A stretch of 64,000 nucleotides of DNA from a virus. Its lineage: Duplodnaviria > Caudoviricetes. Made by a program: the position numbers and the translations under genes. The DNA lies in the IMG/VR virus record IMGVR_UViG_3300032138_000004, positions 1 to 64,000 of that record; one strand, written 5' to 3'. Below the pieces are notes generated by a model. That model made no database searches and was not told the DNA's origin. It saw only the letters and a program-made list of their open reading frames with translations. Below, in pieces: positions 18,787 through 57,541 of the stretch (within the stretch, counting starts at the first letter, position 1; every line of letters begins with the position of its first letter).

Positions 18787-19184
18787 TGGTGCGTAGTTTC
18801 GCGAACCAACGACTGCTGGATCGGATCACCGGGAAGACGGTGGAGCGGCAGATCAGCCGGGGCATGGAAGGGGTCAGTGCATCGCCGACCCTTGTGCTGC
18901 TTGAGGACCCCGTGGGCGACCTCGAGGAATTGGTCGAGGCGACCGCGATGGACGAGGGCAAGCGGCCCAGCGCGTTCCTACGGCGGCGCAAGGCCCGCCA
19001 GCTCGGTCTCGACGCATCCACCGGCGCGATGGTGCTGAATGGCCGCGAATGCTGTATGGACTTGGTGCGCGCACTCAACCGCCAACTCCACCGCTTGCGG
19101 CTTCCGGCGGAGCACGTGTGCGTGGGATGCGGCACGAGGTGGGGCGTCCAGAACCTCGTGAGAGAGGAGCGCCGGCATGGCTGA
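18786..19184 (+). CDS. hypothetical zinc-binding protein
   Basis: ECC...CVGC; overlaps both the terL stop and the portal start. Confidence 0.6.
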   Translation: MVRSFANQRLLDRITGKTVERQISRGMEGVSASPTLVLLEDPVGDLEELVEATAMDEGKRPSAFLRRRKARQLGLDASTGAMVLNGRECCMDLVRALNRQLHRLRLPAEHVCVGCGTRWGVQNLVREERRHG

Positions 19185-27944: not shown

Positions 27945-29500
27945 TCATCGGTTCAAGCTCTGGTCGATTTGAGAGATGGTTTCGGTCTGCTCGGCGAGCT
28001 TCTCGGCGGTCATCCGGTCGAGAACCTCACCACGGGTGAAGATCTGCACTGGGCGGATGCCCAGAAGGCCGAGGCGCTCGGAGCCGACGGTCAGCCCAGC
28101 GCGGGGGTGAGCGGTGTCGCCCTCGCCCATGGCGATCGGGGCGACGAGCTCCTGATCGGCCCAGTGGTTGCGGGCCACGCGGCTCGACTGCACCAGCGCC
28201 TCGACAGGCCCGTAGTCCTCGAAGGACCGGTCGAGCGCCGTCACCGTCTGCATGCTGCGGCCGAAGCCCGGGGCGAAGGCGCCCAGGTTCTTGGCCGCCC
28301 ACCACCACTTCGCACCCGTCTTGTCGGTGATGCGGTAGACGTCGTGGTTCTCGGCCGTCCAGCGGCGTGCCGAGTCAGCCTCGGCCATGGGCGGGTCGAG
28401 GCGCATCAGGCCGTCGACCAGGGCGCCACCCGTCCAGGCCCGGTCGGTCTCAACGAACCACGGGGGCACGTCGTTGTAGGCCTCGAGGTCCCGGCCGTAG
28501 AAGATGTCCCGGTTCGTCGTCATCACGAAGGGAGCCTGGATCCAGGGGGCAGCCCGGGACACCGTCTCGCCCAGGGCCTTCTCGTCGCCCTTGGCCGCGT
28601 CCCAGATGTTGGCCCACAGGGAGAGCCCGTCGTTGATGGGCAGCGGCGGCGCCAGGTACAGGAAGCCGTCGATGCGAGCTATGGAGACGTGGCGCTGAGC
28701 CACCTCGTTGGCCGCGTTCGCGTCCTCGTAGAAGACGGCGAGGCGGCCCTCGTTCCACTCCTGCAGCACCAGGACGGGGTCCTCCTCGAGCTGCTCGCGG
28801 GTGAGGCCCTTCAGCGCCCGCAGCTGACCGAGCACCCGGTAGGGGTTCCGCAGCAGCGTGTGCCACATCAGCTCCTGGTTCAGCTTCAGGAAGCTGTAGA
28901 ACATGATGACGTTGCGGGCGATGGCCTTCTCGAAGGTCGACAGCTTCGAGTAGTCGAAGCCCACGAGCCGGGCGACCTTCGCCGCCTCAGCCGGCGACTT
29001 GCCCAGCTTGAGCTCGTCGATGAAGGTGCCGACGCGCATCCAGTTGTCGATGCCCGTCGCGGAGTCCATCAGGAACTGCTGCCAGCGGCCAGCCATGAAC
29101 GGGATGTTCGCGTAGCGCTCGTAGGCGCCCCGGTGCATGTCGCGCAGGTCATCGAGCAGTGACGGCGTCGCCTCGCTCTGGATGTAGCTCGAGGACAGAC
29201 CCTCGCTCTTCGCCATGTCCGCGATCATGTCGGCCGTGTAGACACGGCCGTCGGGGGTCACGATGACGCCCCCGCCCGGGTAGCTGTCGTAGTTGCCCCA
29301 CAGCCGCTTCACGACGGCCGCCGTCACCTTCGGGTGCCTACCCAGGGCTGCAGCCGCACCTCGAGCGCCACGGCCCATGTAGGCCTGCAGGAGGGCGCCG
29401 ATGGCGTTGGCCGTGAAGTAGGGCGGGTTCGGGATGAGCGGGCCCACCGTCAGGCCCATGCGGATCTTCGTGAAGATCATCGGGAACATGCCGAGCATGC
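27945..29500 (-). other. C-terminal LPD38-like region of the giant protein (approximate)
   Basis: DNWMRVGTF...AEAAKVAR...FDYS...MFYSF pattern typical of large phage internal proteins. Confidence 0.5.
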
Positions 29501-32500
29501 TGTCGATGGTCTCGCCGATGGTCATGGCGGCGTGGATCGACCACGGCCTGGAGATGTCATCGGCGCGGCCACTGGGTCGCAGTCGCTTGAGCCGGTCTGC
29601 GACTCGCTCACCCATCGGCTTCGTGGGGTCCATGGCCCTTCGGGTGGCCGGGTCAGCCACCTGTCGAGCGACGGGCAGCACACTGCGCACCCGAGGCGCC
29701 GCCACGCTGTCGAAGGCCCGGCCCACGTCGGCGGCCTGCTCGAGCGCCTGGTCGAGAGGCTCGCGCAGCATCGACGGCATGATGGTCTCGGACCCGTCGG
29801 GCAGCGTCACGCGCTCCCACCCGCCCTTGCCGCGCTTGTAGCCGAAGCGGGCGAGCAGACGCTGGGCCTCGGTGTAGGCCTCGATGTTGTGGACCTGCGC
29901 GTCCTGCTTGATGGTCTCCGGGTAGTGCTGCCTCGTCAGGCCCTCTTCGACAGGGCTGATCTTGCCGACCTCGGGGTAGTGGACCGTCAGGCCCTCTGGG
30001 TCGACGGCGTGCGTCAGCGACCAAGACATCTCGGCGTTCAGGTACTGGATCACGTCGTCCATGAAGGCGCCGCGATCCTTCGCGCCGGCGGGAGCCACGT
30101 CGGCCTTCGACGTCGGCATGCCCATCCGAGCGAGCGTCTCCGAGAACTCGCCCAGCACCTCGAGGGCCCGCATCCGCACCAGGATCTCCGTCCTGATGAC
30201 GTTCGGGTCCACCCGAGAGACCGTGCGCGGGTCGGCGCCGCTCTTGTGTCCTCGCAACTCGGTCCAGCTCTCGAGGGTCACCGGCCGCTTGGCGTTTGGT
30301 AGGTCGGGCGGCAGGTCGCTCTCGGCCCACCGGCCAGTGAAGAAGGCCTCGTACAGTTCGAGCTTCGAGCGGTCGGTCAGCGTCAGGATCGAGGATGCTC
30401 GTGCAGTGCTCCCGGAGCCGCTGATCTCCATCCCGGCCGTGCCAGTCAAGGCGGCAGCGATGTCGGCCGCACGCTCGCTGACGAGGCCCCACCGACGGTC
30501 GAGGGCTTCGCTGATCTCTGCCAGCGCCGCCTCGACGGCGGTGATCTCGTCGGGGGTAAGCAGGTTGTCGGGCGGGGGTGGCGGCAGCGGGTCAGCCTGC
30601 TGCAGCCCCTTCAAGCGCTGGTACTCGCGGACCCGAGGGTCGTGCGGCATGTCGCTGATGAGCTGGTTGACGGCGCGCAGGATGGGGCCCTGGTCGAGGG
30701 CGCGACCAGCCAGGGGGTCGTAGCCGAGCCGGGGGCGCAGGAGTTCGGCGAGGCCCGACTGCTCGATGGCCGACCGCATCGACGGGCGCCGACCAGCGGA
30801 GGGCGCCGCCTGCCGGCCACTGATGAGCCGCTGGTACTCCAGCACCCGGGGGTCGTTGGGGCGCTCACGGAGCAGCCGGTCAATGGCTCGGACGATGTGG
30901 ATCTGGTCGGCGCCCAAAGAGCTGCGAGGGTTGGTGCCCGTCCGCTCCCGAAGCAGTTCGTCGATGCCTGACTGGATCATGGCCTCGCGACGGCCCATGC
31001 GCGGCCCAGTGGGCCCCGCGGCTGGCGCTGGGGCTGGCGCCGGCGTGGGGGGCGCCTGGGTGATGCCGCCCGCATGGAAGTGCAGCAGCTGCATGGCAGC
31101 GGCCTCTTCGGGGGTCGCGCCGTGGGGCACGTCGTCGATGACGCCCTGGAGCATGCTCAGGTGGTCGGGGTCGAGCAGCCTGTCGATGCGCAGGGGGTCG
31201 GTGGTCGCCACCTCGTCGCGCACGCCGCGCAGCGCCCGCACGTTCGAGACCTCGTCGCGGCCGTTGAACCGGTCTCGCATGCGACCCAGCACCTGCACGT
31301 TCGCGATCGACACGGGCGTCGTCAGCTGCCTCATCACGCCCTTCAACGTGTCGACCAGGCCCGACTGGGGGTCGCCCTCGCGGATGTTCCGACCGGCCGT
31401 GCGAACCCAGTCCTGCGACCGGCCGACCTCGCGGGTGGCGCGGTCCCACGCCTCAGTCACGTGCGGATCGACGTACTTGTCGCCCGGGCGCGACGTGGTG
31501 AACATGTCCGAGAGCCGCCGCTTCCAGTTCTGCGTGCGGACCGAGCCCGTGCCCGTGTGCAGCTTGTCGGGGATCTCCCACAGCGCGCGGGCCAGGGCCA
31601 CACCCAGGGTCGGGGGGATGCGCTCAGCCCGAAGATCACGCCGCGCGCCGGGCCCGGCCATGACGTCGATCTGGGCCTCCTGAAGCGCGTTCAGTTCCTG
31701 GAAAGAGACGGTGCTCAGGTCCGACCGCGGGTTGATGAGCTTCTCGAAGCCCCTCGGGTCGACCACCGGGTTGTTGGCCACGCGGTTGGCCAGTGTGCGC
31801 AGGCCCGCCTGCTGGGCACGGTCGAGGGACACGGCGTCGTCGGCAGCTCGACCCTCGTCGACCAGTTCCATCACCGACATGCCGATGGCCGTCGACAGCG
31901 AGGCGTGCACCTCGCGCTGGAGACCCTCGGCCCGACCTGCGGGCACCACCGTCCGTGCCGTCATCGCCACGAGCTCGATGCCTCGAGCGTTGCGGCGGGC
32001 CTGTTCCGTGGCCACGTAGCGGATGGCCTTCGCCACGAGGTCGTGCAGCGGCACCTCCTCGCCAGCGCGGATGCCCATGTCCTGGAGCACCTCCTCACGG
32101 CGGAGGTTCACGCGGCCAGCCTCTCGAGCACGACCGGCCCGGCCGACGGCGTCGTCGAGGGGGCCCACCTCGGGCACCACGGCGTGCGGGAAGCGGGCGA
32201 GACCCTCGGCGGCCCCGATCTCCACAGCTACGGAGTCGGCGATGCGCTCGGGGCGGAGCCAGCGGTCCCAGACCGCCGCCACCGCAGGGTCGACCTCGAG
32301 GTCCCGGCCGCGAACCTGAGCCCACACGTCGGCGAGCCCCTGCTGGAGCTGCTGGAACTGCATCCGCAGCCAGCCGTTGGGGGCGGTGCGCCGCTCAAGC
32401 CACACCTCGAACATGCGGGCCATCTGCTCTCGGCCCTCGACCGTCCGCATCGGGCCGCTCTCGCCGTCCTGCACGTAGATCTGTGCGTTGATGGCGTCGG

Positions 32501-35500
32501 CCTTGTCGAGGCCCCGGGCGTCGGCAGCCTGCTTCGGGCCCACGCGGTGGGCCTCGGCAGCCAGCGCCCGCACCTCAGCCTCGGGCATCCGCTCGAAGGC
32601 AGCGTCCATCGCTTGGCGAACCTCGGGGGTACCAGTCACGAGGTCGATGAGGTGGCCCTTCTCGTGCCAGAGCGTGCGCAGCGTCGAGCCCTGGTACAGC
32701 GTGATGACCGCCGTCGTGGTGTCGAAGGTGCCGCGGGCACCGCCGTCGCCCGGCTGGTAGAGCGGCTCGCCGCCGGCGATGTCCCCGGGAAGCTGCTCGT
32801 CGGTCCACCCGAGACGGCGGAGCCGGGCCTCGGGGACCTTGGCCAGGCGCAGGAGGTCGAGGCGACGCTCGACGCGAGCGGGCTCGCCCGGGCGAACACC
32901 GCGGCTCTTGATTCGGCCACGCCGCGCGCCCTCGGCGCCTGCGATGTCCTTGGCGATGTCCTCGACCTCAGCGTCGGAGAGCCGCCGCTTCGGACGCTGG
33001 GCCCGGGTGAGGTCGTCGGTGGCCGAGCGGTAGTAGTGCTCGACGGCCATGCGCAGGCCTTCGCGCCAGTCGCCAAGCTCGACGTCGTCCCAGAAGCGCT
33101 TCTGGATCTCGAAGATGCGACGCACGTCTCGGAGTGACCGGGGGGTGGCCACGATCTCGCGCCAGTCGGGTCCGTACTCCTCGACGAGAGCGTCCTCGGC
33201 CACCCGGGCCGCGCGCACCTCGACATCACGTGGGGAGTACCGCCGTGCGTCGGGCCGCAGCGCGTTGTCGATGTGCTTGTCGAGCTGGCGCCCGAGCATG
33301 ACCATCGTCTGCGTGGGCGAGGTGTGGCCACGCTGTGCCTGCTGACGGGCGATCAGCGCCTCGGCCGACTCGATCTTGGGCCGGTTGGCTACAGTGCGAG
33401 CGATGCGGACATCCATCCCGCCCGACTCCTGCCAGCGGCCGATGTCGTCCTGCTCCGCGAAGTGGTCCTCGTAGCCGGCGAGCTGCTCCTGGATGGCCGC
33501 CGACTCCGCGAGGAGGTCTTCGTCGGGGTGCCGCCCTGCCTCTTCGGCCTCGGCCAGACGGTTCTCGATGATGTCCTGACGCTCGCGCAGGGCGTCGACC
33601 TCGGCGCGAGCGGCGGGCGTCAGGCCAGCCGACGATCCGCCCAGCATGCCACGGGCGCGGCGGGGAGCCTCGCGCCGAGGGGCGGTGTACTTGTCGCCCT
33701 GCACGCGCTCGATGGCGGCCACAACGTCGGCGTCCGACATGCGCCGGCTCGGCACGGGGCCCTCGGCCATCATCGGCTCGAGCAGAGGCTCGAACACCGC
33801 ACGCGACAGCGCCGGGGGCACGCCGTTGCCGATGATCGTCGTGGCCACGATGCGGCTACCGGGCAGCGGGTAGCTGTCGGGCAGGCCCGTCATGCGTGCC
33901 ATCACCCGAGGAGTGACCCGCTTCACCCGGCCATCGGGCATCACGATGCGGTGCAGCTCGCGGGGGGTGGCCTTGATCGTGGGGGCAGGCTCGCCACCGA
34001 AGGCGTGCGGGAGCGTCTTCCGGTTCGTGCTCCCACCCATCACGAGCAGCGGCTCGGTGATGTTGTCGACGTCGATGCCGTGGCGCTCGAGGCGCTTCCG
34101 CTGCCAGTCGCCCAGAGGCTGGTCGGGCAGGTCGTCGACGAGGTCGCTGACAGCGTCGAACCAGCCAGCGTGGGGCTGGTCTGCACCCGGCCCGTGGGTG
34201 GGCTCAGGCCGCGGAGGCAGCTCGCCTTGGTCGGGCCCCACCGCCCGCAGCAGCAGGCGCTTGCGGCGCGTCGGGGCGCCGTAGTCCGCTGCCTCGTAGA
34301 CGTGGGTGTCCCACTTGTAGCCGAGCTTGTCGAGCTCGTCGGTGATGACCCGCATCGCCTCGGTCTTGCCGTAGGCCGCCACGTTCTCGAGGGTGAAGAC
34401 AGGGGGCCTGATCGTGCGCAGCGCCTCGGCCGTCGACCGCGCCGTCTCGACGTCGAGCGGGGCCTCGTTGCGGCCGAGCTTCGCCAGGCTGGAGGTCTTG
34501 CAGACGGGGCTCGCGTGCAGGTAGTCGGCGTCGGACGCCTCGGTGAAGTCCTGGTTCTGCACCCGCCCGACACGGACGTGGTCCCCGTGCACGACGGCGT
34601 AGTGGGCAGCCACGTTCTCGTCGAACTCGACGGCGTAGATGGGCTTGATGGCCCCGCGAAGACCCTCTTCGACGAGGCCACCGCCGGAGAACAGAGTCGC
34701 AGTCGGGGCCCTACCAGGGCTAGCGACCTCCACGCTACCCGCTGCGGCTTCGCCGTCGCCCCGCTGGAAGAGCGGCCCGCGCTCCACACGACCCGTCCGC
34801 ATGTCGCGATACTCGCCGGAAGCTACGAGCCCACTGTCAAGAGCATGCTGGGCTTCGTGTTCGTACCGGAAACCCTCGGCGAGGTCAGCCTCGCCCATGT
34901 AGTCCTCGAAGATGCCGGCGCGGTCCACGAGCCGGTACCGGGGCTCGCCCCAGAAGTCGAACTCCTCGACCTCCCACTCGGCCTCTCGGGCGCCCTCCCG
35001 CTGGAACATCGGCATCGTGTCCGATGGCGCCGCGTCCTCCGTCGTGATCTCCGACCACGTCCGCTCTGCCCGGGGGCGGCTGACGTCGGGGATGTCGTCG
35101 ATGTGCGCCCGGCGGCGGGGCTTCGGCAGCGGCACCACGTCGTGCAGCCCGTAGGTCACGGGCGCGGGACCCACGGCCAGGCCACCGCCGATGGGCACGG
35201 GCTCGCCCGCCGCCACCCGGGCCTCGTTGCGCAGGGCAGCGATGGCCATGGCCCGCAGGTCCGCCTCGTTCAGCGTCAGCTTCAGGCCCTGGCGGAACAG
35301 CCAGGCCTTCAGGCGGGCGATGAGGTCGCGCACGATGCCGTTCTGGGGGTCGACCTCCACGAGGTAGGCCAGCGCCTCACGGCGGTACAACTCGCGGCCA
35401 CGGGCCGACTCAGGGTCGACGCCGCGCGCCTCGAGGTCCGCCATCGCCTTCGTGTGCGCCCGGGCGGCGGGGCCGTCGGTGGCGCTCCGGGCGAGCTCGG

Positions 35501-38500
35501 CAGCACGGTCCAGCAGCCGGGCCTCCTCAGACCCGAGCAGCCCGCGCATGCCCATGTGAGCACCGACCTCGTGGACCACCGCGCTCTGCAGCAGCTCGGG
35601 GGTCATCCGCGGCGCCAGGATGTAGGCCGTGCCCGGCCCACCCTCGCCGTCGGGCACCCACATCGCCGTCTGGCTGCCGTCGTCGAGGTCCGACCAGCGG
35701 CCGCCGTCGATGTCGTCGAAGCTCTCCACCACCCGCAGGCGCCCGTCGAGGAGGGGGCCAGCGAAGGGGAACTGCTCGAGGATGGCGTCCTCGGCCTGGG
35801 CGACGGTCAGGCCCTCGCCGGCCTCGGCGCGCTGACGGAGGATGCTGGGGTCGGCGGGGTCGAAGGTGCCCCGGTTGCCGGTCGCCGACTTGATCTGCTC
35901 TGGGCGGAACACAGCGTAGGAGTCGGCGGGCTCGCCCTCCACGCGGTTGCGGTAGACGATCCCATCGTAGCCAGCATCTTCCAGCGCTTCCTTGATCGCC
36001 TCCTGCGCGCGGAGCACGGTGGGAGGATCGCCAACGAGTTCGCCCCGAAGAAGTGCTTCGATGTCTGGGTCCTCTCTGAGCTGACGGAGAATGCGGGGCT
36101 CAAGTGCGCCCGCCTTCTCGATGTCTGCCAGCACCATGTCGGGCAGCCACGACAGCCGGTCTGGCATTCTGAATGGACTCTTGACGCTCAGGTACACGGG
36201 CACCAGCGACCCTGCGACATCACCGAGATCATCGTCCAGCGCGGCCCGCTCGATCGCGGCTCCCTCCTCCAGAGGGAGTCCCACCCTGGCGTTGGCGGCA
36301 GACGCCGTTCCGAAATGGGCCCCAAGGCCCTCTGTGTTGAAGACGTCGAAGCCTCGGCGGGTCCCGTGGTACACGACCAGCGGCTTCCCCTGCTCGTCGA
36401 CCACCTTGCTGTCACCGAACCACGCCTTGAACTCAGGCGTGTCCACCGGGTCGGCCCGCTGCATGAGCATCTGCTCGCGGCCCCAGCGCTGCGACCTGTC
36501 CGCCCACGCCAGCGGCGTCCCGCCACCCATGGCGTCCTGCGCTGCGCGCATCGTCCCGCCCGTCGCGATGACGTTGTCGACGATGAAGGCGTCGGGCAGC
36601 TGCTCCGAGGCCTCGATGCCGTGCTCGGCTGGCCGGCGCACGCGGCCACGCTCGCGCATCGCCCGGCTCGACTCCACAGGGGCCGCCCGTGAGAGCACGT
36701 CGCGCACCTCGCCACCGACACGCTCTGCGATGGCCTCGGCCAGCGCCAGGTTCCCCGCCGTGTTGCCCCTCGAGTCGGGGGCGGGCACCAGCACGGCGCC
36801 CTGGGGCACGCGCTGTGCGAGCTCGTCGGCAGCCGTGGCCACCGCCTCGGGGTCGCCGCGCTTCAGGGCGTAGGCCACGTCGCGCGTCTGCTTGTCGGCC
36901 GCCGACATGCGCACCTTGTCGCGCGGGGAGACGTAGTTGCGGGCCACCAGGGGAGGCCGCGTCGGCGCCCAGCCACGCTGGGCGAGGGGCTCGTCTACGC
37001 CTCCCGCTCCTCGGGCGCCTGGTACGTCGGCAGCGGGTCCTCGCTCTGCCACACCAGCCCGCCGCTCGGCAGCTGAATGGGGCCGGAACTCGAGTCGGGC
37101 GTCGCTTCCGAGAGTTCGTAGGGCGTCGTTGTACCCCTTGAGGAGGGCATCGCTGTAGAACCTGTTGAAGTCGGCATCGCTGTATCCCTTGGCTGTGGTG
37201 CTACCGGGGGCTCCGCCCGCGGCTCGGATCTGCGCGTCCATCTGCTCGCTGGCACGCCGGCTCGCGGCCCAGTGCGCCTCGCGCAGGCTGCGGTCGACGC
37301 CCTCTGCCCGCGTGAGGAACTGCCACTCCGCCGCGCCCTCGGGGCGGGCCAGGACGTAGACACCCTCGCTCGTCACCGCACGCATCTCGCGCAGGTTCAT
37401 GGTGAAAGTCACCTGCAGGTCTTGCAGGGACAGCGGCGCCCCGCTCGGGTGGTAGTGCGTGAAGACGAAGTCCCCGGCCTCCATCGCCGCCTTGCGCGTC
37501 CACTCGGGAACGTGAACGAGTGAGCCCAGCCTCGCCTCGCCGCGAGTGAGCCCCATGTTCGACAGCGCCCACTCCATCTTCTCCGTGTCGGCCTTGTCGA
37601 GCCCCCCCCAGAAGGAGTCGTCGGCCATGTTGGTGAAGCGGCCGACCTGCCGCCCCTCTGCGTCGAAGACCGCCGCGTGCTCGACGTCGGCTGCGTTGTC
37701 CCGCAGCGCCGACTCGGCACCCTCCAGGCTCATCCCGCGACGAAGCGGACCCACCGTGTCGGGGGTCACGTCGAGGGGGTTGCTCTCGAGTTCCTCGGCT
37801 GGCGCACCACGCTGGAATAGCGGCTCCTCGTCTACGCCGGGTCGAGCGCCCCGCTCTCCTCCAGCGAGTCCGCCATCCGCCCCAGCTCCGTCACCATCAC
37901 GCCCACGCCCTCGTCGAACGCCGCCTCGTCCTCCGAGTAGTTCGCCAAAGAGCGCATCGACCTCTTGAAGAAACCCGTGAACTCGTCCTGGCACAGGGTG
38001 TCCATCCGGCCCCAGATCGCCCTCACCTTCGACACCTCTTGCAAGTTCTGCACGGAGACGCTCCCTGAGCTGTTGGACACGATCAGCGTATCGCCTGGGG
38101 GTACGCCCCGTCACGTCGGAGGATTGCATCACCCGTTCGGTCGACTTGCCGAGGAAGCAGCCGAGGCCGCCGCGAGCATCGCACTTCGTGCAGTTGAAGG
38201 TGCGATCCAGGACGACGCTGTCCTCGCCACGGGCGAGCGCGCTGCGCACCTTCCGCAAGTCGCGTTCGTCGGCTCGCACCTTGAGGAGGCCCTTCTTCGG
38301 CTTGTCCTTCTTGGGCGACCCGCCGTACTCCCGGCGGAACCTGTGGAGGCCAGAGGTCTCCCCGTGAGCCTCGACTAGTTCGACGAGGCGCTCCATCACT
38401 GGGCGCGTGATGGTGGTCGCCACGCCGAGCCGCAGCACGCCTGAGTCGATCGGGCAGATCCGCTTCTTGGCAGCGGGCACCTGCTCCCGGAGCGCCCTCA

Positions 38501-41500
38501 CTGCGCGCTTCGCGGCAGCCTGCGCCTTGAAGGCCAGCGAGGCCTTCACTGGCAGAATGACGCCGATCTGGTCTCGCTCGAGCAGTGTCTGGATGAGCGG
38601 GATGTCCTCTTCGCCGCGGTAGACAACCGCCGTCGCCAAGTCGGGGTTGGCGTCCGCTGCGCCCACCCGGCCGTCGTCGATGGAGAGCAGGCGGACGTTC
38701 CGGTCGCTCACCTCGCGCAGGTTCTCAGGCCGCTTGCTGAAGACCTGCACCCGAACGTCCTGGCTGTTCAGCTCCTCGATGACGGGGAGCCACGCCTTGG
38801 AGAGGTCGCCCTTGTCGAAGAGGCGCAAGGCCTTACCTTCGCGGAACTCGGACGTCGCCCGGTATTCAGCGGCGATCTGGTTCGCGGCCCGGATGGGATC
38901 ATCCTCGATGGCGGCCGTGACGAGCTCCGCCTTCACCACCGACCCGAAGTAGCGGTAGTTCCCGTCGGTGGCGTAGCAGTAGGTCGCGCACGCCTTCGAC
39001 GGATTGCAGTCCAGGAAGCTGCCGTTGACGTTGTTGACCGGCTTCTCCGCGCCAGAAAGGAACTTCCCGGTGCTGTTGAAGTAGGCCCACACCCCGTCCC
39101 TGCTGGCGCCCTGGATGAGTCGCTTGGCGGTGACCGAGTAGTCCAGGGCGGAGACCACGCTGGACTCTCTGCCAGCGACAGCGTCCATGATCGAGGCCCG
39201 AACCATGGCCCCCTCGATGGCCTGGTGGGCCCACGGCGTGCCCTTGTGCAGCTTGAGCTGCGCCTCGACGCGGGCCCGGTCATCGCGCTGGGCCATGACC
39301 CGGTCCCAGGCGGCCTGCTCTGGGGCGGTGAGGCTGTCGAGGTCGCGCTTGAAGCGTACATCCTTCCAGTCGGGGGGGGGCTCCACCACGTGGCCGCTCG
39401 CCGCCGCCATGGCGAAGTGGCCGTCCTCGGCGTCGCTGGCCATGATGTCGTCGGCTTGCTCGATGGTGATGGAACCCTTCGCCCGGCCTGTCTTCTCCGA
39501 CTTCTGGGCGAGCCGCTGCGCCTTGTACATGCCCTTGTGGGTCGTCTCGACCCCCTTGGCCTTGTCCCAGATCCAGTGGTGCACGACGTGCCCGAACATC
39601 TCGCTTGGGATGTCGGTGCCGATGCCGCGCCGCTTCAGCCCTCGGATGGACTGGTTCACCCGGCGCGAAAGCTCCCGCGCTACCCGCTTGCTGCTCGTGT
39701 CCTTCACGAGGCGAGCAACCTCGGCTCGCTTCCCCTTCAGTCGCCCGATGTCGCCCCGGCCCGTCAGCCAGACGTTGATCTCAACGGCGTCAGCGGTTGC
39801 CCGGCTGCCCATGCCGAGCAGGTGCCCGATGAACGCCTTCTTGGCCTCCCCGATGCCGGCGAGACGCTGTGCGGCCTTGAACAGCGCGTCGGCGTCGGTG
39901 CCCGCCCTGTTGATGGCGTCGGTGGCCTCCTGCAGGTTCTGCATGGTGACCTGACGCTCCTTCACCTTCGGCTCGTTCAGCGAGCTGCTGTTGCGGACCC
40001 GATCGTCGCCGTAGGTCAACCGGACGTCAGCGCCCTTGCCCCAGGCGTCGGCGTCGAACTCGCCCCGCTCGATGGCGTTCAGCGCCCGCTGCCCGTCGTC
40101 GGTGAACAGCCAGGCGGCCGCCGCTTCCTCCGGGCGGACCATCCGGTCGCCCTTCTTGTTGTACGTGACGAAGTCCTCGGGGATGCGGAAGCCGGCCCTG
40201 CCCTCAACGAGCGAGGCGCGCACGGCGTCGGAGCCCATCGACGCCACCGTCATGAAGTAGGCCTTGGCCACGTCCCGGTTCGTCAGCTTGCCAGCCGCCA
40301 GCCTCTGTCGCTGCTCAGCCAGGAACTCGATGACGCCATCGAGGTACTCGGGTCGATCGCCCAGCATTTCCACGATCATGCGAGTCGGAACGAACGGTGT
40401 GCGGCGCAGGCGCTCCAGAGCCACCTTCGCCTTCGACACCTTGATGGAGCCCGCAGCCCGGCCGCCCTTCTCCTGGAACAGCGGCTGCCCCTTGAACCGC
40501 GCGAGGCGCTTCATCTTCGGGCTGAGCGTCATCATGTGGACGTTCGGGCTGTCGGGGTGATCGGGCAGCTCGGCCATGCCCACGCGGGCGCCCATCTTCT
40601 TGCCGAACTTCTTGGCCCAGCCCACGAGCTTGCCGTCGTAGAAGGCCTCCATGCCCTTCGTGCCGATCTTCAGTTCGCCAGCGCTGATCTCCCCCATCTT
40701 CATCTCGGCGTCCAGTCTCCCCCACACGATGTTGTCGCGCCGCGCCTTGTCCGCCTCAACCGGGTCATCGAAGACGGTGATGTCGCCGTAGACGCCGTCG
40801 TGCGGCTCGCCGTAGTAGCCGAGCAGCACATGCTGCCCGGGCACCGCCGCGCCTTCGAGATCCCACGCTTCGATGTCGGTCTCGGTCAGTTCGTGCACCG
40901 TGATCAGCTCAGACTCGTCGTGCCGCCAGCGGGCCGCCGTTGCCTTGGCGTCCTCCTTGAGGAGGCGCGCGGGCTCGTCACCAATGGCCTCCTCGAGATC
41001 GTCCCACCCGAAGTCCTCGGGGAGGTCGACCTCCTCGCCATCCTTGATGGCCACGAGGCGTCCGTCCTCGACATCGGCAGGGTCATCAAACTCCCACCGC
41101 AGCACGTCGACGTGCCCGCCGAGGTCGAACAGCTCGGCCTCCATCACACCCGTCGGCCAGGCGATGGCGTCGTAGTCGCCGTCGGCGGCGAGGCGTACCA
41201 TCCGCTTCATCGCCAGCGCGTGCCACGAGGTCTTCAGCGGGGCGTCGGGGACCCTCCCCTTTTCGTCCCAACCGATGAGTCTGTTCTCGTACTCGCGACG
41301 AGCAAGACCCTCAGCCTCATGCATCCGCTGCATTTCCGGCGAGTCGTTGTACTCAGCCAGCGCGTCCATGATGTCGGCGTTCTGGTAGAGAGTCCGACCG
41401 CGATACTGATCGCGGGTCAGCCCGCGCGCCTCAAGCTCCTTGTCAAGGAAGGCGTTTCTGGCAGTGCTCAGCTCGGTCTGCACGTCCGAGAGGCGCTTCT

Positions 41501-44500
41501 TCAGCAGGGCCCTCGTCGGGCCCGTCTCCGCGCCCTTGTCGAGGTACCCGCGCTTCAGGCCCTGCTGATGCCAGTCCGACTGCACCTCGTGGATGAAGAG
41601 GATGCGACGGCCCAGAGCGTCGATGCGCGTGTCGAAGCGGATGTGGGCCAGGACGTTCCGTTCGTCCCAGTGGTCGTAGGTAAAGACGCCGCCCTTCTGG
41701 TCGAAGTAGGCGCGAACCGCACCCTCCGGGGTCTCGCCACTTGAGATCCGCTCCCCGTCCTCGATGACGACGAAGTGACGGGTCCCGTGGCTCACGCGCT
41801 CGCGGACCTCCACCCCCGGGGGCAGGTCCGACTCGTCGAGCGCCATCGTCAGCAGCAGCTCCTGGTAGCCGCGGCCGCCGTCGTGTGACCAGTCCTTGTA
41901 GCGGGTGGGGTCGTCTACCGACTCTCGCTCCAGCTCCTGCAGGTGGCGCATGGCCATGCCGTGCTCGTTGTTCAGCGCCTGGTACTCGCGGGACCATTCG
42001 AGTGCCTCTTGCACCTGCGCCATCCGCTCCGGGCCGAGCGTCGTGACGTGCATCCGCATGTCCTTGAGCTCGCGCACGGTCCAAGCGTCGGGCTCCCCGA
42101 AGCCGCGAGCCGGCTTGGCGTCGTGGAAGAACAGCCGGCCCTGGAGATCTCCTCGCAGCGTGCCCGCCACCTCTTGTGGCCCTTCGCGGAACTCAATCAG
42201 CGGGGCCCGCTGCATCATCTGGCCGCGCTGCTGGTTCAGCCGCTCAACCTCAGAGGCCTGGGCCTCGACCTTCGGGTCCTTCCCGCCCTTCAGGACATCC
42301 CGAACCTCGAGCGCGTGCGCCGCCACGTGGGCCTTGGCCGCCTCGCGCGTCACGCGACCCTGGCCCTTCGCCCACTCCTCGAGGCCGAGGAAGTCGATCT
42401 CCTCCGCCTTCACGTCGGGCTGCTTCCGCACCATCGCCAGGAAGCTCTCTGCCTTGATGGACTTGGCCCCCTTGGCGAAGACCCGGTCGATGGCGTTGTC
42501 GACGGCGCTGTAGAACGTGGGCGCCAGGGGACCGCTCGTCTCGAGGGAGCCGCGGGCACCGTCGGCACCCTCCTGGAACAGGGGCAGGCCCCTCTCCACG
42601 ACCGACCGACGCATGTCGGGGGTGATGGGGAGGTAGGTCGACGGCGGCTTGCGCTCATCGTTGAGTTGAGCAGCTACCCGCTCCGCTTCCGCCCGACCGG
42701 CGCGAACGCCGCCGAAGCGGGCGCCATGTTCGTCCTCGACGACCCACCTCTCGGGTGCATCGGCAGGGCCCCCTGGCTCCTGCGCGTCAACCGCTGAGTA
42801 CGGCGAGTCGTGTGGGTCCAGGGATGGCGAGTAGATGCCGCCCTTACGCTCGGGCTTCACGCCCCACGGCTTCCCGATGTCGGCCAGGTACCGGGGCACG
42901 TTCACGTCGTAGAAGCGCTTCTGGCCCTCCAGTCCGCCGCCCACCACGCGCTGGATGTCCTCGCCACGGACCACGGCCACGCCGTCGTAGCCCTGCTCGG
43001 CGGCCATGCGGACCACGCGGCGGAGAGCGAGGCGGGCCCAGCGCTTGTCCTTGAAGGGGGCGTCGGGGACGACGCCATAGGCGTCCTCCGTGTTCCGCGC
43101 CAGGAGGGGGCTGACCTCCGCAAGCTCTCGCTCCGCGCGGGCGAGATCCGCCTCGTCACCCTCGGCGCGGGCTCGGCGCATCCGCCTGCGCAAATCAAGG
43201 CTGCGCGCCTCCAGCTTGTCGATCTCCGACCTTGGAAGCTGGTACCCCTTCTTGCGGCCCGCCTGGTGCCAGTCGCTTTGAATCTCCTCGATGAACAGGA
43301 GCCGCTCGCCGTCGGGGCTGATGCGCTCCGTCAGGCGGATGTGGGCGACGACATTGGCCTCGTCCCAGTGGGGGGAGGTGTACGTGTTCTGGGATCGAAA
43401 TCCGCGCTCGCCCCTGGCGCCGCCAGCTTTCTCAGCCGCGACACGGTGAGCATACGCAACTGCCCCCGCCCGTGTCTCGCCGCCAGCAAAGAACGCCCCA
43501 CCACCGTCCAGCACAGCCCAGTCGCCCGGCCCCCTTTCCACAACGCGATGCCCTGGTGGCAGTTTTGCCAAGGGCACAGGCAGCGTCAGCAGGATCTCCC
43601 GGTACCGCTCTCCGCCAGGCTGCTGGTACTCGGCCCAACGGGCGGCGTCGGCTTCATCGGGGCCCTCGTAGACCAGCGAGTCGACGACATCGTCGTAGGC
43701 CTCCGAGATGCGCTCCACGTGCATCGGATCGCCATCGGCGATGTCGTTGATTATGTGGCCAACCCTCGGGTTGTCCCCCTCCATTGTGCCGAATGGATGG
43801 TCCCCAGGACGAAGCGCGCTCTGCAGTTCGTGGAACAGGCCGGGCCCGCCGCCTGCATCCTCTACCGCCGTTCGCAGCTGGGCCATCGCTGCCTGCGTCT
43901 CGGGCCGCGCGAACATGTCGGGCCCGGCAACCTTCGTGACGTCCTTCACCTCGAGGCGCTGCGACCGCATCCACTCGCGGTACTCGTCGACCGACAGCTT
44001 CTGCCGCCCCTTCGACTCGAGCTCGGCAAGGTCGACCCACTCCAGTTCGTCGGCCAGGGCCGGGTCCTTCTTCGCCAGCGCCCTCATCTTCGTGGCGATG
44101 GCTTTCGCCCGCAGCTTGCCCGACGCCGGGAACTCCTCGAGCGTGCCCTCCTCGAGCCGCGAGTACCACATCGGCCCCGGGGTGAGGCCGGGCTCGGTGG
44201 CCACGGCGCCAGCGGCACGGCCCGCATCGTCCTGGAAGAGCGGCAAGCCGCGCTCGACCACCGCACGACGCATGTCGGGGGTGATGTCCAGGATGGTTGC
44301 GCTCAGCGCACCGGGCACATCGTGCGTCTCAAGGTCACCGAACTCGCCAGCCGTGAAGCGCTCGGGGTCGCCCTGCCGAGCCACGAACGCACGGGCCTCA
44401 TCCGCTGTGCCGAACATCTCGACCGGCGCACTGCCGCCGTCACGCTCCCACACGCCCCACCCGAGGGCCTCACCCATCCGGTCGACAGAACCTGCAGTCC

Positions 44501-47500
44501 CGCCGATCGTGGTGTCGCCCGGCCGCACCCCCCACGGCTTCCCGATGTCGGCCAGGTACCGGGGCACGTTCACGTCGTAGAAGCGCTTCTGGCCCTCCAG
44601 GCCGCCGCCCACCACGCGCTGGATGTCCTCGCCACGGACCACGGCCACGCCGTCGTAGCCTTCCTCGGCGGCCATGCGGACCACGCGGCGGAGGGCGAGG
44701 CGGGCCCAGCGCTTCTCCTTGAAGGGGGCGTCGGGGACTCGCGCATTCAGCGCGGACCGCAGCCTCTCCGCTTCCCCGGCGGCGGCGAGAATCTCGTCAG
44801 TGAGCGCCATCTTCCGAGCATCGGGTGCGTTCGTGGCCTCGGCATCCTTCAGGTCTGCGCGAAGCGCTTCCATGCTGGCGTGAAGGCCGGCCACCTCCTG
44901 CTCCCGCATGCGCGCATCGGGCGTGTCCTCCACGTAACCATGCTTCCGAGCGGCTTGGTGCCAGTCTGACTGGGCTTCTTCTACGAACAGCACGCGCTTG
45001 CCGTCCGCAGTCGTGCGGTCGCTCAGGCGGATGTGGGCGAGGACGTTGGGCTCGGACCAGTGGGCAGAATCGTAGACGCGGCCACGCCGACGCTCGGGTG
45101 CCTCAAGTTCGTACTGGTGTGCCCGTGAGATCGCGGCCTCAGCGGTTGGGGAGTTGAACCGCGCGACCCTCGTGCCAGAGGCGTCCATCACATCCCAGGT
45201 TCCTGGGCGGCCATCCACCTCGGTCGCGACCCATCCGCTGGAGCTGACGCTGTCGGGCAGCGTCAGCAGCACCTCGCGGTAGTTCTCGGCGCCGGGCTGG
45301 GTGTACTCGGACCAGCGGGTGGGGTCCTCCGATCCGCGGTCACTGTAGGCCGCGATGTAGTCAATGGCGGCGTTCTCCAACGGCTCCCTATTCGGGCCCT
45401 CAACGCCCAGATCGTCCAGCCGCTCGGCCAGTAGGCCGCCGTCAGGTTCTTCCCGCAGAAACGCCACCAGCGCGTGCAGGTCTCCCAAAGACAGGTCCGC
45501 ACGGCCAACGGCCCACTCCAGCGCGTTGCGCTCCGCCCGCATGGCGCCGTCTTCCAGGGCCACTCCTTCGACGCTACGCTTCTGGACCTCCCGCACCTCG
45601 ACACGCTGCCCACGCATGAACGCCCGAAACTCGTCGACCGTCATCTTCTTGCGGCCCAACTCCTCGATCTCGCTCAGGTCCATCCACTTCAGCTCTTCGG
45701 CCAGCGCGGGGTCCTTCTTGGCGAGGGCCTTCAGCTTCGTCACCACGCCCTTCGCCCGCATCGAGCCCGACGCAGGGAAGGCCTCGACGGCGCCCTCCTC
45801 GAGGCGGGAGAACCAGGCGGGGCCGGGGGTGGCCGGGGCGGCCGCGGGGGGCTCGACCTCGACGATGTCCTTCGCCCGCACCATCATCCGCGCGTTGCCG
45901 GCCTGCACCTTCAGTCGGTACCCAGCCTCATGTCGGGTCGAGCCAGGCTCGTACACCTCGACGACCTCGCCCTCGAACTCACGCATCGGGCGCCCACCAT
46001 CAGCGGAGGGCTCGACACGAACCCGGCTGCCAACGACAGCGGGGTGCCAGACGTGTGCACCTCCCATCTGGGTGCGCCACTCGTCCCACAGAGTCACCAG
46101 CTCGGGGCTGACGCCGCGCAGCGCTGTCCGCACCTCGTCGGGCTTCGGGTTGTTCAGCGCGGCGATGATCTCACCCTCGTGCATCCCGGCCCGCAGGGCG
46201 GCCTGCTCGAAGCGGGCCCGAGCCCGGGCAACCTTCGGCGGCTCGGGGACAAACTTGGCGACGTCGTCACCCTCGGCCAGCACGCCCGTCTTCGGCACCT
46301 CTGGCCCAGGGGCGTCCACCGACTTCAGCCGGAACTGCTCGAAGTACGTCTCGACCCGCGGCACCTTGCCGTCGATCACCGCCCGCATGGACTCCATCTC
46401 CGACACCGCCATGGCCCAGTCGGCACCGCCCTTCGGCAGTTGGCCTCGGGCCTCCGCCTGCTCGGCCGCCGCGCGCATCGCCTGGTAGTCGGGGGTCGCC
46501 CGCAGCGCCTGCTGCCGCGGGGTGTTGCTCTTCATCACCTTGCGAATGTTGTCGAGGTGGGCCAACCCGTTGAGTTCGGCCGTTTCGTCGTACTCGCCGA
46601 GCATGGCGTTCAGTTCTTCAGGGCTCTTCCCCGTCACCACCCGCAGCACCTCGCGCACCGCGTCGTGCTGGTCGCGGGCCACCTGCTCCTTGAAGCTGGC
46701 GCCGCGCACCGCGTTCCGGCGCACACCCGTCTCGACGACGCCGCCGTAGACGTCCCATGGGGTGCCCGTCCGCGCCTCGAAGCGGCCGGCGAACAACTCG
46801 GGGGCGGCGCCAGCGCCGAAGGCAAGGCCCACGTCGCCCTTCGTGGCCGCCGCTGCCCGGCTCATCTGCCGGGCGTAGCTGATGCCCGTCCCGCCGCGAG
46901 ACCAGGCCGCACCCACCGGCGCAGAGGGAATCTTCTCCCAGTCGATGAGGAAGTCAAAAGCCAGCCCGAGCTGGAGCGCTGTCTGGAAGGCCAGCGTGTC
47001 CTCGCCGTAGCCAAGGCTGTAGGCCATGTCGGGCAGGCTCAGCGCGAGGCCCTGCTGGTCCTCCTTGAGGTGCGTCGTCAGCCGGCCACCCCACGTGCTG
47101 TCGTCGGAGAACAGCCGGGTGTAGTCCTCAGTTCCGAGAATGCGGCTGATGGCCGGTGAACCGAGCATCTTGTCGACGCCGTAGAGCGAGGGGAACCGAA
47201 GCTCATCCTGGATCGCCCCGGCTGTGTCCTCGACACCGAGTACACGCTGGGCCAACGACCATGCCATCAGCGGCACGACGGGGGGGGCGTCGATGTCAGC
47301 CTGCAGAACCGCCGTCTGCGTAACGCCAGCCGGCACTCGCATCAGCCAGCCGAAGGTCGTCTCTGCCTTTAAGAATCCATCCTCCCCGATAGGAGTGGTA
47401 TCGCTCGATAGGCCCTCAAGAACCCCGCTCATCACGTCGACTGTGGCACCACCAGTGGCGGCCCTGGCCCGCTTCCGCTCGGCCACGCCCTTGCGCAGGC

Positions 47501-55441: not shown

Positions 55442-57541
55442 CTACCCCTCCGTCCCGGAGAAGACCTCGGTGAGCGGCAGCGTCTTGCGGCGCTTGTCGA
55501 CCTGGATGACCCAGTCGTATCCGATGATCTCCCCCCGACCCGTCCAGGAGAAGGTCGCCTGGAGCTCGTGCACGGGGCCGTGCCCCATGCTGGTGACGTC
55601 CCAGCGAACCACGACAGGTCGATGGTCTCCCCACTTCGCGGCCCCGCCCCAGGTCATCGTGCCGTAGACGGGCAGCAGGTCGTTGTCGCTGCCATCCCGG
55701 GCCATGGCGTCCACCACGTAGCGCTGGTCCCTGCCCTGGTCGCTGTCGTAGATGGGCGCCATCGCCCGGCTCGGGGTCACGTTCAGGCTGATGTCGTTTT
55801 TGCCTAGGCCCACCACCGTGGCCAGCACCCGGAACTTCCCGAAGACCGCCTGGTAGATGCTGCCGAAGTCGACGTGCGCAGTCTCGTAGATCGAGGAGAG
55901 CGCCGTCCCGCCCTTGTCGCCGAAGCCGTGGCCGTAGACCCACACGCCGGGCTTGCTGCTGGCATCGTTCGACCCGAACATCAGGTAGCCCCGACGGTCC
56001 CCCGTCACGACCATGGCCCCGATGGGGTACTCCTGCCGCGTGCTCCAGGCTCCGATCTCGTAGTGGTACACGAGCACCAGATCGTTCTTGTGACTGCCCA
56101 CCGTGGGCACAGCCAGCCAGTATTCGCCGTCTGCGTGGTAGACGACACCCTCAGCAGCAGGCAGGGCGGAGCGGTTGATCCGCCTGAACAGGTCAGGGAT
56201 CTGCGTGTCGAGCTGCACCAGCTTCGTCGGCGTGCCAGTGTTCTCCAGCGCGCCCTCGAGGAGGTAGATCCCCGTGTCGCCGACGAAGACCAAGCCGAGG
56301 CCGGGAAGGAACCGCACCGCGTTGGGCGCCGTCGTCCCCACATCCCGGAACAGCGTCTGGGCATAGAAGCCCGAGGCCGGGTCCCCCTTGATCAGGTAGA
56401 TGCCGCGCGCCTTGAACACCACCAGCGCGTTGCGCGTCGAGTAGAGCGCTGTCGGGGGCCCGCCCTCACCGTCGCCGAGGTCGAAGAAGTTGTCGGGCGG
56501 GTACTCCTCGGGGAGGCCGGGCTTGCTGAAGTGCACGCCACGCTTCGTGGCCAGGAACATCGTGTCCTTGAACACTGCGATCAGGTGCGCGTCGGAAGGG
56601 AAGCCCCCGAAGTTCTCAGGGTCGGCGAGTTGCGCGAGTGATGTGTCTGGCAGCAGGTCCGCAAACAGCCGTGTTGAGTTGTCGGGGATCTCAGTCAGGA
56701 AGTAGTAGTTCTCGTTGGCCCCGCGACTCAGTGGCTCGCCGCTACTGTCGAGGACGTCGGCCGTGCGGTACAGGCGCGACGCCACCGCCCAGTCCGGGCC
56801 GGGCGCCAACTCACATGTGATGATCGTCGTGGACGTCGTATTCAGGAAAGTGATCAGCACCGATGGTTCTGACAACGCCGACTCCTGGCCCCGCTCGTTG
56901 ACAAATGAGCGCCGATATATGTAGCCGCAGGTCTTGCTGACCTCGCCCAGTCCGATTCGAGCGTCAGATATGAGATGGTCGGTGTTTGCTGCGTCCTTGT
57001 TGGCCACGTAGACATCGGGCGGCGGCGGCGCGAGGCCGAACCCAGCCCGCATCGCCTTCACCCCATCGAACACCAGGGGCTCGTCGTAGCCGTTCACCAG
57101 GTAGAGGTAGTCCCCAAACACCGCCGACTGAGTCCGTGCCCAGGGCACCGTCTGCGTGGCCCGAGACCGCACCGTGCCGTCGAAGGCATCGAATGCCTCG
57201 TCCACGATGTTGTTGCTGTTGCCGGCCGGCGAGAGGCTGCCGTTGAAGTGCTTCAGCGCTCCAGTCGCCGTCTCCCAGATGAGCCACTGCCGGGTCCCGC
57301 CCTGCTGCGAGAACCAGTGCAAGCTGGTGATCTCCGCCGTGCTGTCGAAGGAGTTGTCCCCCTCGTCGTCGTTGGGGGTCAGTTGGCCGTAGCCACCCGC
57401 CGTGCGCCACCCCTCCTTGCGGTGCCACGTCATGTCCGTGATGCGGGCAGCCGCCGACGGCGACGCCTTCCACCGCTGGTCGATCCCGCGCAGGGGGTAG
57501 ACCTGCAGGTGCTGGCTCTGCCACTTTTCGTGCGTGCTCAC
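55442..57541 (-). CDS. podovirus tail nozzle / DNA-stabilisation protein (P22 gp10 / T7 gp12-like)
   Basis: Beta-propeller-like pattern (YLYLVNG, VHFSKPGLPE, LVVFK, DVGT..P, LVYHY..AWS); size and position. Confidence 0.7.
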   Translation of the reverse strand: MSTHEKWQSQHLQVYPLRGIDQRWKASPSAAARITDMTWHRKEGWRTAGGYGQLTPNDDEGDNSFDSTAEITSLHWFSQQGGTRQWLIWETATGALKHFNGSLSPAGNSNNIVDEAFDAFDGTVRSRATQTVPWARTQSAVFGDYLYLVNGYDEPLVFDGVKAMRAGFGLAPPPPDVYVANKDAANTDHLISDARIGLGEVSKTCGYIYRRSFVNERGQESALSEPSVLITFLNTTSTTIITCELAPGPDWAVASRLYRTADVLDSSGEPLSRGANENYYFLTEIPDNSTRLFADLLPDTSLAQLADPENFGGFPSDAHLIAVFKDTMFLATKRGVHFSKPGLPEEYPPDNFFDLGDGEGGPPTALYSTRNALVVFKARGIYLIKGDPASGFYAQTLFRDVGTTAPNAVRFLPGLGLVFVGDTGIYLLEGALENTGTPTKLVQLDTQIPDLFRRINRSALPAAEGVVYHADGEYWLAVPTVGSHKNDLVLVYHYEIGAWSTRQEYPIGAMVVTGDRRGYLMFGSNDASSKPGVWVYGHGFGDKGGTALSSIYETAHVDFGSIYQAVFGKFRVLATVVGLGKNDISLNVTPSRAMAPIYDSDQGRDQRYVVDAMARDGSDNDLLPVYGTMTWGGAAKWGDHRPVVVRWDVTSMGHGPVHELQATFSWTGRGEIIGYDWVIQVDKRRKTLPLTEVFSGTEG

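Follow-up and report, generated by a model that had tools for sequence, protein, structure and literature searches.

A recurrent peptide tag in a giant phage polyvalent protein corresponds in sequence to the N-terminal junction of CLCA_X-type zincins

The IMG/VR virus record IMGVR_UViG_3300032138_000004 (Duplodnaviria; Caudoviricetes) is a single contig of 99,775 bp with a G+C content of 62-72%. Its first 64 kb (positions 1 to 64,000, the window analysed here) encode a phage terminase (16885-18786), a portal protein (19177-21063) and, on the minus strand, a giant open reading frame (ORF; 27945-49121) of 7,058 amino acids (aa), designated P0001, in which a short peptide ending in Gln, hereafter the tag, recurs between protein modules. 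The gene order is internal virion protein genes, giant gene, fibre-like genes, and the gene two places upstream of the giant gene (55442-57541) has a PHROG match annotated 'internal virion protein'. P0001 unites at least ten distinct modules in one polypeptide. Pfam searches identified an ART-PolyVal domain (PF18760; E=4.7e-20; score 73 bits, cut-off 31) and a C5 DNA_methylase domain (E=2.9e-26), which makes P0001 a 'polyvalent protein' as Iyer et al. 2017 (PMC5512222) use the term; it is probably an internal virion protein resembling type D (IVP-D). Weaker matches were obtained for GP88 (E=5e-5, below the curated cut-off) and Pribosyltran (E=0.005), and the JAB and HhH labels of two further cassettes derive from sequence motifs only. 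When the cassettes were searched individually, zincin 1, zincin 2, the JAB, HhH and 79-aa modules and the ExQSDWHQ domain had no Pfam match. The MPTase-PolyVal model had no match at E<=1 on any cassette of P0001, which holds two other HExxH domains. Neither Pfam nor PHROG returned a chymotrypsin-like protease in P0001, in which no fold is assigned to the first ~1,100 or the last ~1,400 aa. The GP88-like and methylase cassettes probably hold more than one domain each.

The eleven tags listed in a preliminary description of the window were all found, each at a position that is exactly the last base of its Gln codon, and P0001 is the sole carrier of all of them. PL[FY]Q occurs six times in P0001 (0.05 expected; at most three in 2,000 shuffles), [LM]xQR[GAE] seven times (0.80 expected; a count reached in none of 1,000 shuffles) and [PMI][LM]xQ[RK] six times (0.36 expected). 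Across the genome, six-frame ORFs other than the giant one hold almost no copy of the tight motif. One other PLFQ lies outside the window (..CWDPLFQEEPDG..), in a 231-aa ORF without assigned function (contig C1, 67197-67889, minus strand), and an additional match to [LM]xQR[GAE], MMQRA at aa 2302 (about 42207-42218, minus strand), sits in a variable insert of the third ExQSDWHQ copy. A scoring matrix built only from the zincin junctions of other phages, under which the median true junction reaches 14.3 bits, gave 13.6-19.5 bits at Q1630, Q2183, Q2883, Q4786 and Q5456. Tags 5 and 6 have an extended GVDE-PL.QRG context in common, and the hydrophobicity of the tag 5 flank falls in the 1st percentile of the protein; tag 4 shares with the other tags only L-x-Q-K and the downstream [RK]G-S-I. 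The tags are restricted to aa 1627-5456, and no tag occurs at the boundary before ExQSDWHQ copy 1, in the N-terminal ~1,100 aa or in the C-terminal ~1,600 aa.

Table. Tags and modules of the giant protein P0001, with window coordinates; bits refer to the junction matrix described in the text.
Feature	Position	Strand	Residues, context and basis
Tag 1, PLFQ, then DDAGRAAGAV	44232-44243	-	aa 1627-1630; ends ExQSDWHQ copy 1; 14.9 bits
Tag 2, PLFQ, then EGADGARGSL	42573-42584	-	aa 2180-2183; ends ExQSDWHQ copy 2; 13.6 bits
Tag 3, PLFQ, then EKGGRAAGSI	40473-40484	-	aa 2880-2883; ends ExQSDWHQ copy 3; 19.5 bits
Tag 4, RLAQ, then KSEKTGRAKGSI	39504-39515	-	aa 3203-3206; weak variant after HhH-like module; 1.5 bits
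Tag 5, PLFQ-RG	37812-37823	-	aa 3767-3772; after GP88-like module and Gly/Arg/Asp-rich stretch
Tag 6, PLAQ-RG	36978-36989	-	aa 4045-4050; after JAB/RadC-like module
Tag 7, MLMQ-RA	36459-36470	-	aa 4218-4223; between PRTase-like module and ART
Tag 8, ILRQ-RA	35832-35843	-	aa 4427-4432; C-terminal tail of ART-PolyVal
Tag 9, PMFQ-RE	35001-35012	-	aa 4704-4709; after zincin 1
Tag 10, PLFQ-RG, then DGEAAAGSV	34764-34775	-	aa 4783-4788; boundary of 79-aa module and methylase; 15.3 bits
Tag 11, PLYQ, then PGDGGARGTF	32754-32765	-	aa 5453-5456; junction before zincin 2; 17.4 bits
Three ExQSDWHQ copies	40473-45824	-	about aa 1100-1630, 1631-2183 and 2184-2883; sequence comparison
Cargo cassette block	32754-40472	-	HhH-like through methylase
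HhH-like cassette	39504-40472	-	sequence motifs
GP88-like cassette, Cys-rich	37812-39503	-	weak Pfam match to GP88
JAB/RadC-like cassette	36978-37811	-	sequence motifs
PRTase-like cassette	36459-36977	-	Pribosyltran, E=0.005
ART-PolyVal cassette	35832-36458	-	Pfam
Zincin 1 cassette, HEVGAH	35001-35831	-	aa 4431-4707; lineage-specific, P0001 and P0003 only, 65% identity
79-aa module	34764-35000	-	between tags 9 and 10
C5 methylase and about 340 aa	32754-34763	-	Pfam
Zincin 2	32232-32747	-	aa 5459-5630; HEKGH aa 5486-5490 (32652-32666); HMM match, CLCA_X-type, candidate tag reader
Conserved C-terminal region	27948-32231	-	aa 5631-7058, no tags; common to the four giant proteins; BLAST blocks against P0003, P0004 and P0005

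As had been described, tag 11 runs straight into an HExxH zincin (zincin 2), and sequence comparison identifies the tag as the conserved N-terminal junction of this CLCA_X-type domain. BLASTP aligned zincin 2 with Bbp10 of Bordetella phage BPP-1 (E=2e-13, 182 columns) in an alignment that starts at the tag, where EPLYQ-PGDGGARGTF of P0001 faces DKFYQ-GG-GRARGTF (the Bbp10 site, KFYQ-GGGRARG, lies at about aa 765-775). Bbp10 aa 700-1000 is one of the seeds of the CLCA_X family, and relative to the published HExxHxxxD consensus of the family, the Asp in HEKGHLID of zincin 2 comes one position early (Lenart et al. 2013, PMC3650047). The HExxH motif and a Glu ~75 residues downstream are invariant across 69 zincin sequences. 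A HMMER search of 1.84 billion representatives with a profile of 69 relatives returned 12,462 clusters, 6,982 of them at E<=1e-30, and the best matches were mostly proteins of 2,000-3,500 aa with the zincin domain in mid-chain. CLCA_X carriers number more than 10,000 sequence clusters and include cultured phages, among them BPP-1, Xanthomonas CP2, Pseudomonas AF and Caulobacter phages. Irrespective of the upstream domain, the junction consists of hydrophobic-x-Gln (h-x-Q), a spacer of 0-10 residues rich in Gly, Asp, Glu, Ser and Pro, and [RK]-G-x-h-x-F, which is the first strand of the zincin. Three samples, none of which had been collected by means of the motif, were inspected for it. It was present in 12/12 loci of a sample fetched with the ExQSDWHQ domain (80 loci out of 597 confirmed stretches in IMG/VR), in 55/57 non-redundant proteins from 80 further IMG/VR loci fetched by a profile of the HExxH domain alone, and in 146/156 representative domains at <=50% identity (~94%, against 36% of random 30-aa windows), where P3 is Leu in 109 domains and P2 is Phe in 84. 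The HExxH is degenerate in one of these 156 domains, too few to relate a dead active site to loss of the Gln. In an AlphaFold model of zincin 2 (69 aligned sequences, mean pLDDT 67), the Leu-Tyr of PLYQ pairs with the domain through a beta-bridge (pLDDT about 75; upstream residues, 42-47); two strands, RGTF and VITL, come next and lead into the HEKGH helix.

Some proteins depart from the usual form of this junction. P0035 (2,496 aa) carries four zincin matches with identical upstream sequence, an internal duplication, and its junction lacks h-x-Q. At L088 (9600-10140, plus strand) the reading frame shifts between ..DSIILQNADQQFQ and the zincin ..LPRGGLTEGQTVINLF, exactly at the junction, through either a frameshift or a sequencing error. 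The gene calls of P0019 and P0025 start MTEIM.., four residues past the tag Gln of fused homologues (..EKYNQSING-MTEIM..), and may represent a natural split at the tag. Many Bbp10-like proteins (P0038, P0053, P0086, P0095, P0102, P0124 and P0125) have a further site, h..h.h....YFQ-[SG]K, at aa ~435-500, which lies ~1,000 residues before the zincin and scores comparably to the junction tag.

The Gln of the tag was found to co-vary with the presence of the zincin, also where the two are far apart. The ExQSDWHQ domain, a widespread phage domain without assigned function that is triplicated in P0001, has a conserved tail (..ITPxMRxxhxxGxPLF). This tail ends G.PLF-Q in 17/17 zincin-bearing cases, seven of which are not adjacent to the zincin (L002, two in L048, three in P0001, and P0003), whereas the tails of zincin-less proteins (about 13 sequence groups) end in A, T, S or E, with one exception group. 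A Fisher test of 7/7 against 1/13 gave p of about 1e-4, with four zincin-less ORFs ending at the edge of their locus and hence of less certain status. The tail of the ART domain, N.G.FDP..P.IL.Q, likewise ends in Gln in 8/8 zincin-bearing proteins, six of them non-adjacent, against His, His and Glu in zincin-less ones. Moreover, h-x-Q precedes the N-terminal edge of ExQSDWHQ in 9/11 zincin-bearing cases against about 2/9 zincin-less ones, and in 3/3 cases of a second sample. Outside the junction, the matrix detects junction-like sites in zincin proteins at 2-2.6 times the frequency seen in shuffles and at about twice the density seen in zincin-less polyproteins, and many of these directly precede ExQSDWHQ or ART starts. 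Strong extra sites (>=12 bits) number at most two in any representative, against four strong and six weaker ones in P0001, whose tag array is the extreme case.

His-ending counterparts of the tag were also seen. In the zincin-less polyprotein L026:2375-14188 (plus strand, aa ~1437-1632) two ART-like domains end in IRFH and ILFH, and in P0023 RILFH lies ahead of a zincin-like domain without HExxH; these may be a His variant of the tag whose reader is different or lost. The ExQSDWHQ domain itself occurs in at least 597 confirmed IMG/VR stretches, often as a stand-alone protein of ~750 aa, and belongs to no Pfam family.

That the tags fall between domains, as originally proposed, is borne out by Pfam edges, hydrophobic-poor flanks, a drop in AlphaFold order and breakpoints against the closest relative. 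The ART-PolyVal match (residues 21-199 of 209) fills the cassette aa 4222-4430, and the C5 methylase model begins 23 residues downstream of Q4786, so that both HMM-defined edges coincide with tags. The hydrophobic fraction is 0.167 in the flanks of the 11 sites against 0.279 protein-wide (p<1e-4). In an AlphaFold model of ExQSDWHQ copy 2 (pTM 0.74), for which Foldseek returned no clear PDB fold match, confidence is 92-96 through G-L-P, then 58, and 30 after F-Q; the 11 residues that follow the preceding tag Gln score 39. Homologues of the GP88-like cassette were seen inside two other zincin-bearing polyproteins (L095 and L157), which makes it a recurrent cargo type.

Only three giant relatives (P0003, P0004 and P0005) were found in a collection of 5.8 billion proteins, and searches of a phage collection, IMG/VR, metagenome contigs and genome contigs returned neither closer relatives nor shorter forms. 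The closest, P0003 (5,043 aa), is about 45% identical to P0001, and the breakpoints of the blocks common to both fall at tags (P0001/P0003 residues 2185/1811, 4219/3142, 4692/3595 and 5454/3606). Tag 2 is kept in P0003 as MPLFQ; the junction orthologous to tag 7 reads EPLAQ-RV, where a common block begins, and that at tag 9 reads IDLFQ-RD, the common block stopping at aa 4692. The following P0001 residues 4693-5453 (the 79-aa module and the methylase cassette, about 760 residues) are absent from P0003, which has at this point IDLFQ-RDDGV-RLRQ-PGPQGARGTFD, an empty site where a second tag follows the first at a distance of nine residues. Tandem double tags precede the zincin in other phages as well. 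All five junctions common to P0001 and P0003 retain h-x-Q, and the surrounding linkers have diverged. Zincin 1 was found only in these two proteins. Near its N-terminus (aa 12-50) P0003 also has two tandem EDLLFQ-AA copies, 27 residues apart, which might mark a short removable leader.

At the DNA level, synonymous codons differ among the tags, so it is the peptide that is under selection. The exact words common to the sites measure 11-13 nt, with 21 nt within the two closest ExQSDWHQ copies. The top direct-repeat family of the locus, D1, is the junction itself, with four copies of 53 nt that cover four tags and are 62-75% identical. No inverted-repeat structure marks the cassette boundaries.

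The best-supported reading of this pattern, in line with the processing sites suggested earlier and given even chances, is that the CLCA_X zincin recognises the tag and cuts at it, which would release the cargo modules. The giant gene would then encode a virion-internal, injected polyvalent protein with aa 1627-5456 as a string of cargo modules. Each module ends in [P]-[LM]-x-Gln, followed either immediately by Arg-Gly/Ala/Glu or by 5-9 Gly/Ala/Asp-rich residues and [RKA]-G-[SAT]-hydrophobic, and the tag copies the junction found ahead of the CLCA_X-type zincin in Bbp10-like internal virion proteins. The zincin may bind hydrophobic-x-Gln as a short added beta-strand, its own upstream junction first (in cis) and then the tags elsewhere, and would cut within or beside the tag. 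The predicted separate products are the three ExQSDWHQ domains, the HhH-like, GP88-like, JAB/RadC-like and PRTase-like modules, ART, zincin 1 and the methylase; on either side of them about 1,630 aa would remain at the N-terminus and about 1,600 aa at the C-terminus (zincin and conserved region). The ancestral site was presumably the zincin's own junction, reused to bracket cargo and multiplied to about eleven joints. The sequences directly show the motif with its statistical excess and linker placement, its match to the junction found throughout the zincin family and the co-variation of Gln with the zincin; we infer cleavage itself, the bond that would be cut, its timing (in the capsid or after ejection) and the packaging of P0001. 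Iyer et al. 2017 (PMC5512222) predicted that zincins process polyvalent proteins, and CLCA, the characterised sister family of CLCA_X, is described as cutting itself by means of its HExxH domain (PMC10669480, PMC6851300). A broader proposal, held more tentatively and at somewhat below even chances, is that the CLCA_X zincins of phage internal virion proteins act as sequence-specific processors that read hydrophobic-x-Gln followed by Arg/Lys-Gly, that whatever domain lies between two such tags ahead of the zincin would be injected and then released as cargo, and that this phage may use such a plug-in system to carry about ten effectors in one gene.

Several observations weigh against cleavage by the zincin. 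Six of the 11 sites score at most 5.5 bits and share only [LM]-x-Q-[RK], and the plain h-[FY]-Q pattern is not enriched off the junction in the 57 zincin-fetched polyproteins (115 against 105 in the reversed control). Most relatives have one or two sites, so the many-site array is peculiar to the phage of P0001; P0004 and P0005 possess the zincin but have neither repeated tags nor a clear L-x-Q junction. Zincin specificity usually depends on the residue that follows the scissile bond, and a site defined by Gln would be unusual for these enzymes. The protease fold of zincin 2 was not confirmed by Foldseek, VIA-align or PDB sequence searches, its weak PDB matches being anthrax lethal factor (Z 4.2) and Spartan (E 0.2), and PDB sequence searches gave nothing significant for zincin 1 either. 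No published report of cleavage was found for CLCA_X members, Bbp10 included. Furthermore, the short or N-terminally short forms P0006, P0014 and P0026 keep LFQ with little or nothing upstream; together with the docking of this strand on the domain in the AlphaFold model, this would fit equally well with hydrophobic-x-Gln as a purely structural first strand of the zincin module. The JAB/RadC-like module, which had also been suggested as a possible cutter, shows no link to the motif.

There is also an explanation without cleavage, which we consider rather unlikely: the tags would remain uncut as a structural N-terminal element of the zincin module, and their copies would be remnants of repeated duplication and in-frame recombination at that junction, kept as flexible linkers in a single working chain. 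Besides the short forms and the docked Leu-Tyr, it would account for the five sites away from a zincin where the first zincin strand ([RKA]G[SAT]-hydrophobic) is duplicated as well, which is what copying of the junction would produce, for the identity of the junction with repeat family D1, and for the three sites that derive from the triplicated ExQSDWHQ domain; phage N4 vRNAP and ArdC, moreover, retain their zincins and undergo no processing when delivered (Iyer et al. 2017, PMC5512222). The D1 copies, however, must be old given their limited identity and differing codons, yet Gln persists at all sites and at the five P0003 junctions where the linkers have diverged. Six tags flank unrelated modules without junction ancestry, and the tracking of the zincin by a distant Gln at ExQSDWHQ and ART tails, seen across unrelated phages, is predicted neither by drift nor by simple inheritance. 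A further possibility is that the tags are cut by another protease, which could be zincin 1, a different phage enzyme such as a prohead protease, or a protease of the host. Zincin 1 does occur in the two most-tagged proteins, P0001 and P0003, where it is 65% identical, but it is missing from all other phages with Gln-ending ExQSDWHQ or ART tails. No protease family was detected in neighbouring genes, and in BPP-1, a cultured phage with a zincin of this family, the capsid proteins are reported to be uncleaved (PMC3863775), so that no head protease is evident in that relative. A general head-maturation site was rejected because hardly any copy of the motif occurs elsewhere among the ORFs of this genome, and another protease as the cutter is improbable.

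The tags had also been interpreted as homology anchors for integron-like, in-frame capture of cassettes within one ORF, with no role for the peptide. This interpretation holds only as an evolutionary pattern: every cassette is located downstream of the first ExQSDWHQ domain and ahead of the zincin, and the P0003 indel is bounded by tags, with an empty double site (IDLFQ-RDDGV-RLRQ) of the kind that also precedes the zincin in tandem in other phages. Anchors in the DNA were not found and were rejected. With exact words of only 11-13 nt and 62-75% identity over 53 nt, there are no integron-like DNA anchors today; conservation tracks amino acids rather than nucleotides, inverted-repeat structure is missing from the boundaries, and an exchange by homologous recombination between two tags should leave behind a single tag rather than a pair. 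Recombination at the DNA level is thus a highly improbable reason for the tags.

P0001 has features in common with several known systems. Like the polyvalent proteins, it is a giant multi-domain phage protein with ART-PolyVal, a DNA methylase, a RadC/JAB-like module and zincins; unlike them, its tag-linked zincin is of the CLCA_X and not of the MPTase-PolyVal type, and the 2017 paper, which predicted zincin processing, named no site and gives no cleavage motif (PMC5512222). Its 7,058 aa and about 12 tagged modules put P0001 at the upper end of that class. Polyvalent phage proteins are thought to deliver counter-defence enzymes along with the DNA. What is new here is a concrete candidate site together with a named candidate protease, a pair common to thousands of phage proteins that also occurs in laboratory-grown phages, which makes the prediction directly testable. 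If it is true, the cargo boundaries of such proteins could be read from sequence, and tag and zincin could be used as a small self-processing module. With the CLCA_X/CLCA_N families P0001 shares the alignment of zincin 2 to Bbp10 and the HExxH with its downstream Glu, whereas the h-x-Q...RG junction does not appear in the part of the paper on CLCA_X (PMC3650047), a family of which no member has been assayed. Bbp10 is listed as internal virion protein D, the analogue of T7 gp16 (Hardies et al. 2016, PMC4819975, Table 2), and P0001 resembles the IVP-D of epsilon15/BPP-1-like podoviruses in gene order and in the zincin it has in common with Bbp10. Bbp10 (2,052 aa) has one junction tag (KFYQ-GGGRARG), whereas P0001 is 3.4 times longer and has 11; the sequence comparison of the two proteins covered the zincin part. 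Among proteolytic systems, picornavirus 3C sites read ..LFQ/G, and the T4 internal proteins and the phiKZ inner body are packaged in the head and trimmed by prohead proteases (Thomas 2012, cited in PMC4819975). The resemblance of the tag to 3C sites is one of letters only. Unlike in the 3C and prohead systems, no such protease was found in P0001 or its neighbours and the tag is virtually absent from other ORFs of the genome, the candidate being the zincin. What P0001 has in common with viral polyproteins cut at short tags is its design, a single chain of many modules with a short conserved peptide and an invariant residue at each joint.

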